Below are positions 4,462 through 6,305 of a stretch of DNA of 6,883 nt, one piece after another; within the stretch, counting starts at the first letter, position 1; each line of letters starts with the position of its first letter. The translations under genes and the position numbers were made by a program. A model generated the notes under the pieces. It had not been told where the DNA came from. It did not search any database and saw only the letters and a list, made by a program, of their open reading frames with translations. The DNA is from a virus (taxonomy: Duplodnaviria; Heunggongvirae; Uroviricota; Caudoviricetes), in IMG/VR virus record IMGVR_UViG_2713896907_000005, positions 1 to 6,883 of that record. One strand, written 5' to 3'.

Positions 4462-4547
4462 CACGAAATAAACGTCCGACAAGCACAGCAGCCAATACCT
4501 AAAAACAATATTTTGCCGAATATTCAGTTCGTTATAAAGGTTAAGCA

Positions 4548-5126
4548 TTGAGTATACCAACTGTCTCTCTATGGAATGAGATGGGGTTAATCCCCCCAAT
4601 AGACGAGGCTGATCCTACAAGCCATACTCGTTCCCCATACAAAATGGATATAGTACGCTTTGTTAGTACTTTTTCGCTTAGCCCTGCAAGGATTAAAATC
4701 CTTAAGGGTTTTCTTAACTTTCGTGTTTCACTCACTCAAGCAGGGCTAGTTGAAGGTTTTCAGTGGGTAGATGGAAGCTTCACAGAACATATTGAACTTA
4801 TTGAAAAAAGGCCACCGAATGATGTCGATGTTGTGACCTTTTTTCAATTCAGTAATGGCGATAATGATGCAATCGTAATCGGTAGAAAGCCAGAGCTATT
4901 TGATCATGATTTTGTTAAGAAGGAGTTTTTCGTAGATTCCTACTTCCAAGAACTTAATCTACCAAGTCATGAGCTTGTTGAAATGACTGTATATTGGTAC
5001 AGTATGTGGGCACATAGACGCGATCTGTCGTGGAAGGGATTTATCCAAATCCCGTTAAACCCACAACTTGATGTTGTGGCAATGACTATACTTAATTCGG
5101 CTACTACTGAGGGGGTCAAACAATGA
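4548..5126 (+). CDS. Hypothetical protein A, first gene of an uncharacterised two-gene module at the rexA position; weak nucleotidyltransferase-like motif
   Basis: 192-aa ORF. Start assigned to TTG at 4548 with aagg SD (4537-4540); the in-frame ATG at 4581 is an alternative. Stop overlaps the gene B start (ATGA at 5123-5126). AT-rich relative to flanking genes. Contains GS-x14-DVDVV, reminiscent of the GS...DxD nucleotidyltransferase signature; this is weak. Confidence 0.7.
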   Translation: MSIPTVSLWNEMGLIPPIDEADPTSHTRSPYKMDIVRFVSTFSLSPARIKILKGFLNFRVSLTQAGLVEGFQWVDGSFTEHIELIEKRPPNDVDVVTFFQFSNGDNDAIVIGRKPELFDHDFVKKEFFVDSYFQELNLPSHELVEMTVYWYSMWAHRRDLSWKGFIQIPLNPQLDVVAMTILNSATTEGVKQ

Positions 5127-6052
5127 ATCGTAATGATTATGTTTTCGCTCTCAGTGAGCGCGAGCAAATAAGTAATCTATTAAAAAATATGCCAACAAGT
5201 CATTCTATTAGCCGAAAAAGCTTAGAAGACCGTCTGGAGAAAGTTGAGCGATTAATTTCACAAGCTGACGTTCGAGAACATGAACCTACGCATGCTGTGT
5301 TAACTTTTAGAGGCCCAACAGTAGTTGGCACGCATGGCATTTCAGCAGTATTTGGAACAAAAGCTATATCTTGTTTTAATGATGCAATAGCTTACTTGGC
5401 AACCTCTTTCAATGGCCCACTTCCTGCATCAGGCAAGATACCAAACATAGAAAATAATCATCTCATGATTACCGCGTCAGCCCGTGGTTCTTTCGGATTC
5501 GTACTTGAAGAGTTTAGACCTGATGCTCCTCTTGAATTCGATGAAGAAACCCCAGTAGCAAAAGCTATTAATAAGGCCAGAAAAATATTTCAGGCAAGCT
5601 TGGATAATGATGATGAAGAATTGTCTGATGCTATAGAAAACTTAGACTCTCGGGCCTTAGATAAAATCAGAGCATTCATTCATTATCTGCATGAAAATAA
5701 AACAGTTTTTACACTTAAAAGCCAAGGTTTTAGCATCGTTTTTAGAGAGCCAAAACAGCTTGAAGCTGTATATCAACATCTCAGCAATGATAACATTCAG
5801 CAGGAAAAAATTATTGAGAACGTTATATTTTTGGGAACTCTTCCTAACAAGCGCCAATGTGAATTTATAGTTTTAGGTAACACTGATATCAGAACCGCTA
5901 GCATTGACAAAGCTGTAGATGACCCAGATATTATAAACAAGCACTTAGGAAGCGTTGCAACAGCCACGTTCCTGAAAAAAACTGTTGGTAAGGGCAAGCC
6001 CAGATACACTCTGGTTTCTCGACCTCAATGGGATATTAAATCAATCGATTAG
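5123..6052 (+). CDS. Hypothetical protein B, second gene of the uncharacterised two-gene module at the rexB position
   Basis: 309-aa ORF, ATG at 5123 overlapping the gene A stop. AT-rich codon usage. No similarity I can recognise and no obvious transmembrane segment. Followed 15 nt later by an intrinsic terminator. Confidence 0.75.
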   Translation: MNRNDYVFALSEREQISNLLKNMPTSHSISRKSLEDRLEKVERLISQADVREHEPTHAVLTFRGPTVVGTHGISAVFGTKAISCFNDAIAYLATSFNGPLPASGKIPNIENNHLMITASARGSFGFVLEEFRPDAPLEFDEETPVAKAINKARKIFQASLDNDDEELSDAIENLDSRALDKIRAFIHYLHENKTVFTLKSQGFSIVFREPKQLEAVYQHLSNDNIQQEKIIENVIFLGTLPNKRQCEFIVLGNTDIRTASIDKAVDDPDIINKHLGSVATATFLKKTVGKGKPRYTLVSRPQWDIKSID

Positions 6053-6066
6053 AATGAGCCCCTTCA

Positions 6067-6094
6067 GCCCGGCCTCCGCGCCGGGTTTTCTTTT
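6067..6094 (+). terminator. Intrinsic terminator ending the cI operon (tImm-like)
   Basis: GC-rich stem cccggc (6068-6073) / gccggg (6080-6085) followed by ttttctttt (6086-6094). Confidence 0.75.
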
Positions 6095-6244
6095 ACCATC
6101 AGTCCGTCAAAAACACACCTAACGAATTGTATTTATTGAATAAATATAAATCACACTTATCACATTGCGCAATTCAGCTCCTACACATCCAGACTAGCTC
6201 TGCAAAACTTTAAAAAAATAAATCAATAGTAAAAACATGCACAT

Positions 6245-6305
6245 AACCATTTGCGGTAATATTTTATCTCTAGCGGTGTTGACGAAAATACCTCCGGCGG
6301 TGATA
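6245..6305. promoter_or_regulatory. Left operator OL3-OL2-OL1
   Basis: OL3 aaccatttgcggtaata (6245-6261), OL2 tatctctagcggtgttg (6265-6281), OL1 tacctccggcggtgata (6289-6305). All close to the lambda OL sites as I recall them. Confidence 0.8.

Follow-up and report, generated by a model that had tools for sequence, protein, structure and literature searches.

A two-gene module in the slot between cI and tImm of a lambda-immunity prophage: probably standing in the place of lambda rexAB, with edges not marked by base composition

The stretch of DNA analyzed here (hereafter the window: 6,883 nucleotides (nt), positions 1 to 6,883 of the IMG/VR virus record IMGVR_UViG_2713896907_000005) comes from a lambdoid prophage with lambda immunity, in which the repressor gene cI is followed by two genes that we call A and B. 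Very probably, the segment between positions 4462 and 6067 is the cargo of the variable slot between cI and the immunity terminator tImm, i.e. a two-gene module standing in the place that rexAB occupies in lambda. The phenomenon itself has already been described, since the interval between cI and N has been called “a hotspot of mosaic diversity”, with rexAB and bstA among its occupants (PMC8585504), and the same slot also holds HigBAC in E. coli NT1F31 (bioRxiv 10.1101/2024.02.24.581848). A variable defense locus following the lambdoid repressor is already in the literature and the present case is an ordinary example of it; the cargo is new and uncharacterized. A first-pass annotation of the window had grouped the two genes with their terminator and the AT-rich spacer behind it into a single horizontally acquired cassette, recognizable by its composition and with junctions near 4462 and 6240.

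The joints were located by comparison with lambda and five other lambdoid phages. On the left side, window 3433-4461 aligns with lambda 38255-37227 (blastn) and the homology ends on the cI stop codon. On the right side it resumes with window 6068-6326, which aligns with lambda 35824-35570 at 75.5% identity, lambda 35824 being one base past the rexB stop. Across the six comparisons, the breakpoints of homology fall at 4461-4471 and 6060-6068. When the alignments are printed out base by base, phages whose cI has a lambda-type 3' end agree as far as the TGA and are mutually unrelated from there on (the exception at the left flank being AU5Stx1, which has a different cI end), and the alignment of all compared sequences resumes at CCCGGCC..GCCGGGTTTTCTTT. 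With a stem identical to that of lambda tImm, the hairpin at 6068-6087 is common to lambda and the five other phages. Based on these alignments, the cargo is delimited as 4462-6067, with its joints at the cI stop codon and at the tImm hairpin. The cargos of the compared sequences measure 1606, 1402, 1351, 994, 392, 1076 and 931 nt, and the other occupants of the slot are rexAB, a hypothetical gene with a DUF1828 gene, an NYN gene, a 47-aa open reading frame (ORF), a 332-aa hypothetical protein and a BRO-family protein. No direct or inverted repeats were found flanking the junctions and no recombinase was found in the window, so that the marks of a transposon- or integron-type cassette are absent from it; with conserved flanks, unrelated DNA between them and neither repeats nor recombinase, the cargo has apparently been exchanged by recombination in the flanks. 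AU5Stx1 (L005) has, at ~5538-5577, 40 nt left over from the 3' end of a lambda-type cI gene (CAGTGGCCTGAAGAGACGTTT...), located downstream of the phage's own, different cI; this remnant looks like a scar left by a previous exchange at this joint.

The left junction of the first-pass annotation, at 4462, is therefore exact, whereas the right one, at 6240, lies approximately 173 nt too far, the true joint being 6067/6068. The terminator and the spacer (6095-6240), which had been counted as part of the cassette, align with lambda 35824-35570 (comprising tImm, the spacer upstream of OL, and OL itself), as well as with the five phages bearing other cargos, and belong to the backbone. Their divergence from lambda is 25%, compared with 31% at the four-fold degenerate sites of cI; since the spacer matches the neutral sites of cI in this respect, it is best regarded as backbone which has diverged together with cI. 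We also considered whether 6068-6314, with its 75-77% identity to lambda, had been imported along with the cassette, and rejected this because the neutral sites of cI are equally diverged.

The composition of the window shows a different partition. The GC content is 39.1% in 4462-6260, 48.0% in 1-4461 and 47.0% in 6261-6883, and by feature it amounts to 40.4% in gene A, 38.5% in gene B (29.0% at third codon positions, GC3), 32.2% in the spacer 6095-6240 and 53.3% in P. Earlier hand counts (roughly 35% inside B and 48% inside P) had the direction right, and 200-nt windows within gene B do drop to 34-36%. The contrast of 4462-6260 is with P, the 3' half of O, ren, ninB and N, and not with the immediate neighbors cI (44.3%) and cro (41.3%), so that the description of module and spacer as much more AT-rich than the genes around them holds for P and the 3' part of O but fails for cI and cro. 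The cassette differs only marginally from cI (Fisher p=0.025 for GC; GC3 0.310 versus 0.395, p=0.025). Similarly, the synonymous codon usage of A and B together is indistinguishable from that of cI and cro (permutation p=0.27) and differs from that of O, P, ren, the 108-aa ORF and ninB (permutation p=0.0005), from which the codon usage of cI, cro and cII also differs (p=0.005); by codon usage, the module is thus set apart from the replication and nin genes but not from cI and cro. Genes A and B, although they always travel together, differ from each other in synonymous codon usage (permutation p=0.0025; GC3 of 34% and 29%).

Maximum-likelihood segmentation of the window by GC content gave a sole significant changepoint, at 2457, inside O and beside ori (51.5% versus 42.3%, p=0.003). 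The runner-up, at 6290, near OL and pL, falls short of significance (p=0.12), and no changepoint is placed at 4462, so that no significant break in composition or codon usage marks the left joint. Since the DNA around position 2457 is 95.7% identical to lambda, this position is not a recombination joint; being the only significant changepoint, it means that the low-GC domain spans the whole region from ori to pL. The A-B module is a modestly deeper GC trough inside this domain, and a change of both composition and codon usage at both borders, as expected of a compositional island, was not found. As an observation on the replication region, the shifts in composition around 2457 do not mark mosaic boundaries.

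It is consequently very improbable that 4462-6240 (two genes, terminator and spacer) is a compositionally defined island that came in horizontally as a single block, its junctions being the cI stop and OL. Such a block would fit the low GC of the interval (39.1%, with 32.2% in the spacer), the exact left junction and the position of the second-best changepoint, but the latter is not significant, the codon usage is not distinct from that of cI and cro, and the terminator and spacer are shared with phages carrying other cargos and are about as diverged from lambda as the neutral sites of cI. The two genes are an exchangeable cassette, as the first-pass annotation held, and it is the phage comparison, not the composition, that supports this.

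Low GC probably carries no information about acquisition, and would instead be a lasting trait of the lambdoid immunity region, and of accessory genes at large, whether from mutational bias, weak codon selection or regulatory AT-rich DNA upstream of pL. The nature of the changepoint at 2457 and the difference in codon usage between immunity and replication genes point in this direction, and so do the other cargos of the slot, which are equally AT-rich: the lambda rexAB segment has 40.9% GC and the five other cargos 39.3-42.4%, in backbones of 47-48%. As all cargos of the slot are similarly AT-rich, low GC does not mark this particular acquisition, contrary to what had been proposed for the module. 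The lambda spacer between OL3 and rexB has 38.7% GC. Additionally, copies of the A-B module in other genera (described below) are 4-13 points below their surroundings and track the GC content of the host (from 34% in Proteus to 48% in Burkholderia), the values for module and surroundings being 39.6/52.8% in Klebsiella, 40.8/48.5% in Salmonella, 38.7/49.9% in Pectobacterium, 34.4/46.1% in Proteus and 48.4/60.1% in Burkholderia. On the other side, the cassette is slightly lower in GC than cI, and no exact IHF consensus was found in the spacer 6095-6240 (two matches elsewhere in the window are within chance). In lambda, the AT-rich DNA upstream of pL reportedly contains an IHF site together with a distant UP element (Giladi et al. 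1998). This explanation is compatible with the assignment of 4462-6067 as slot cargo and competes only with inferences drawn from composition. Low GC is, then, a general property of the slot cargos and of the whole immunity region between ori and pL, and not a footprint of the cassette edges.

Genes A and B form a translationally coupled two-gene unit (the start of B overlaps the stop of A in an ATGA), at present an uncharacterized cargo. Among 5426 complete E. coli genomes, eight carry the module at 99.9% identity, and in at least some of these eight (CE10 included) toprim-type replication genes replace O and P. Prophages of Klebsiella and Salmonella have copies with ~80% nt identity directly after unrelated short repressors, alignable from window 4519/4528 to 6089/6024 (the blastn homology begins at 4519 in L012 and at 4528 in L008); the Salmonella alignment extends through the hairpin and a similar hairpin is present 3' of the Klebsiella copy. 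Copies in Pectobacterium and Proteus follow S24 repressors, so that the pair comes after a repressor gene in all four Enterobacterales genera examined. The module was further detected in Burkholderia, on a plasmid of Pseudomonas and, next to a SMODS gene, in an integrase-associated island of metagenomic origin, and the homology of the gene B partners is clear from hhalign (E=1e-59 for Proteus and E=5e-52 for Burkholderia). A tblastn search with gene B of 50,697 phage records found none, and all known copies of the module are in prophages or other integrated elements.

Gene A belongs to the DUF6932 family (Pfam, E=2e-26), which is mentioned in no paper of the library covered by a full-text search. 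Residues G76, S77, D92, D94 and D130 are invariant among 37 sequences, and in the structural model G76-S77 are placed at the end of strand 70-75, with the acidic residues at or beside the starts of strands 93-99 and 129-135. This is the arrangement of Pol-beta-type nucleotidyltransferases (hG[GS] and DxD motifs, with a third acidic residue located on a subsequent strand), and the protein is predicted to have their fold with an intact active-site signature. Minimal nucleotidyltransferases (the MNT of HEPN-MNT pairs and the ANT/KNTase aminoglycoside nucleotidyltransferases) are among the nearest known systems. A family-wide N-terminal IPxWN motif supports the TTG at 4548 as the start codon, the alternative being the ATG at 4581. 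A sequence search of the PDB gave no match for gene A, and neither gene A nor gene B matches NCBIfam. An inverted repeat at 4800-4848 in gene A (16 nt, 94% complementary, followed by a T-run) was considered as a terminator and dropped, because it is a by-product of the EKR...TFF codons around the DxD motif and the structure is not conserved in homologues.

The product of gene B comprises a helical/mixed N-terminal part, with an invariant RGSFGFxLEE motif, and a C-terminal OB-like β-barrel (approximately residues 225-300), predicted in the model as five-stranded and superposable on OB domains. Its family is large, with at least 1469 clusters at 50% identity in an exhaustive profile search, the listed matches being mostly ~300 aa long. 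Nevertheless, it has no family in Pfam, NCBIfam or PADLOC (the latter searched at E<=0.1), a sequence search of the PDB gave nothing better than E>1, and a search of BFVD yielded three uncharacterized full-length analogues (E ~1e-9 to 5e-11, TM ~0.4) which are functionally uninformative. A promoter-like site within the gene (5904-5932) was set aside, since 9 such sites were found where 6.5 are expected and nothing lies downstream of it.

The anatomy of the slot bears on how the module would be expressed. The pair lies on the repressor strand, a scan of that strand (+) found no terminator between cI and gene A, and the only + strand terminator-like site within 3600-6500 is the one at 6066-6087, so that the module ends at the immunity terminator, as slot cargo does. 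Given this arrangement, A and B should be co-transcribed with cI, from pRM/pRE, and would hence be expressed in the lysogen. Lambda rexAB is expressed in the lysogen. Considering, additionally, the company the module keeps, we judge the chances to be about even that A and B are a lysogen-expressed anti-phage pair (acting by exclusion or abortive infection). The slot also holds rexAB, bstA and HigBAC, and neighboring cargos match defense-candidate models of PADLOC: the BRO-family cargo of E2348/69 (L007 5016-5858) matches PDC-S13 (E=2e-86), the cargo pair of ev017 (L003 4622-5928) matches PDC-M24A/B (the A protein weakly, E=5e-4), and a DUF3024 protein encoded upstream of the Proteus pair (L019 4614-4949) matches PDC-S43 (E=2e-28). 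The PADLOC PDC sets argue for defense in turn because they include systems nominated from their embedding in defense loci, namely BREX, DISARM or type I restriction-modification loci, the PDC-M series being unmentioned there (bioRxiv 10.1101/2024.01.29.577857). In the mechanism we propose, the gene B protein would sense or bind, through its OB-like domain, a ligand derived from the phage, for instance single-stranded nucleic acid, and gene A would be the catalytic component, nucleotidylylating a target.

Several points weigh against this proposal. Co-transcription with cI is inferred from the anatomy and from lambda rexAB, and the predicted OB-like barrel is no proof that gene B binds nucleic acid, its top structural match being SilF, a metal-binding protein. 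Additionally, gene B matches no PADLOC model, and the related PDC-M63AB gave no protection, in an experiment where it was deleted from its native host E. coli NILS69 (bioRxiv 10.1101/2024.12.20.629700). The likeness to PDC-M63AB is that it also consists of two genes, is borne by a prophage (in E. coli NILS69), and has A models which gene A matches, if weakly (E=2.2e-10 and 1.5e-4, far weaker than its Pfam match); it differs in that neither gene B nor ten diverse relatives match a PDC-M63B model. As gene B lacks a PADLOC match, the module is not PDC-M63 as defined.

A different kind of function, unlikely in our estimate, would be that of a toxin-antitoxin (addiction) module or of a lysogenic-conversion function, by which A and B would stabilize the prophage or alter the physiology of the host. 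No toxin or antitoxin family was matched in Pfam or NCBIfam, and the invariant columns of gene B contain no HEPN-like Rx4-6H motif; its model is not the all-helical HEPN fold either, so that the pair differs from HEPN-MNT pairs by lacking the features of a HEPN partner. The sharing of the slot with rexAB, bstA and HigBAC favors defense, though the two functions are not exclusive. That the module serves the life cycle of the phage itself, for instance by modulating induction or replication, seems highly unlikely: in the prophages it always adjoins the lysis-lysogeny switch, and the predicted OB-like domain could bind replication intermediates, but closely related phages carry unrelated genes in the slot, which makes the module dispensable there, and copies are also known away from prophage switch regions (on the Pseudomonas plasmid and in the integrase-associated island beside the SMODS gene).

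The closest positional counterpart of the module remains lambda rexA-rexB (35825-37114), which occupies the same slot to the base, from the cI stop to the same tImm hairpin, and likewise consists of two genes on the cI strand in AT-rich DNA (40.9% GC). The contents differ. Window 4462-6067 gives no blastn match to lambda and no Rex family match in Pfam, NCBIfam or PADLOC, the proteins have 192 and 309 aa in A-B against 279 and 144 aa in RexA-RexB, and the predicted chemistry of a nucleotidyltransferase fold with an OB-like barrel contrasts with that of a sensor and a membrane protein. With bstA of BTP1 and HigBAC of E. coli NT1F31, the module shares its conserved flanks, its position directly after the repressor and a non-homologous cargo.

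The remaining features of the window (Table 1) were identified from ORFs and family searches, and follow the order ninB-ren-P-O-cII-cro / cI-A-B-tImm-OL-pL-N, the immunity and replication region being reversed in orientation relative to the lambda map. The cI gene is 89.9% identical to that of lambda at the nucleotide level, with 13/238 amino acids differing, and since cI, cro, OR1-3 and OL1-3 are all conserved, the immunity specificity is that of lambda. Homology to lambda is lost at 3074-3432 (the 5' part of cII and the interval between cII and cro). In 6327-6883, N is of a non-lambda type, with 95-98% nt identity to the genes of ev017, 2B8 and E2348/69, and no lambda nutL or nutR was found in the window; the combination of lambda immunity with an N of a different type makes the phage a mosaic, with lambda immunity and a different N/nut specificity. 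A search of the whole window against Rfam gave zero matches at E<=0.1.

Table 1. Features of the window and their coordinates
Feature	Position	Strand	Evidence or remarks
ninB	227-673	minus	
Unnamed 108-aa ORF	696-1022	minus	
ren	1095-1385	minus	
P	1382-2083	minus	
O	2080-2979	minus	
cII	3012-3308	minus	
cro	3447-3647	minus	
OR1-3	3674-3737		Mapped from lambda operators
cI repressor, 237 aa	3748-4461	+	Pfam HTH_3 and Peptidase_S24; left anchor of the variable slot
Module leader, Shine-Dalgarno-like GTTATAA(A)GG	4519-4547	+	blastn; conserved alongside the module in Salmonella/Klebsiella prophages
Gene A, 192 aa, DUF6932	4548-5126	+	TTG start
Gene B, 309 aa	5123-6052	+	Start overlaps the gene A stop (ATGA)
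tImm-type intrinsic terminator, hairpin CCCGGCCTCCGCGCCGGG and T-run	6068-6094	+	Terminator scan (6066-6087); lambda alignment; right anchor of the slot
AT-rich ORF-free spacer, tImm to OL3	6095-6244	+	Homologous to the lambda tImm-OL3 spacer (within 35652-35824)
OL3	6245-6261	+	Mapped from lambda operators
OL2	6265-6281	+	Mapped from lambda operators
OL1	6289-6305	+	Mapped from lambda operators
pL	6279-6307	+	Promoter scan; -35 TTGACG at 6279, -10 GATACT ending at 6307
N antiterminator	6425-6769	+	Pfam N_peptide

For a slot already known for rexAB, bstA and HigBAC, a further cargo leaves the overall picture unchanged. The joints resolved to the base (cI stop codon and tImm hairpin), together with the finding that GC content serves poorly to locate them, are relevant to the automated calling of islands in prophages. 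More tentatively, a DUF6932 nucleotidyltransferase-fold protein and a partner of ~300 aa with an OB barrel could constitute a widespread and so far unrecognized two-component anti-phage system under the control of repressor promoters, in which B would serve to recognize a protein or replication intermediate of the phage, and A to abort the infection through nucleotidylylation of a target. As a conserved, uncharacterized pair found after the repressor, the module is a cheap and well-defined candidate for defense screening.

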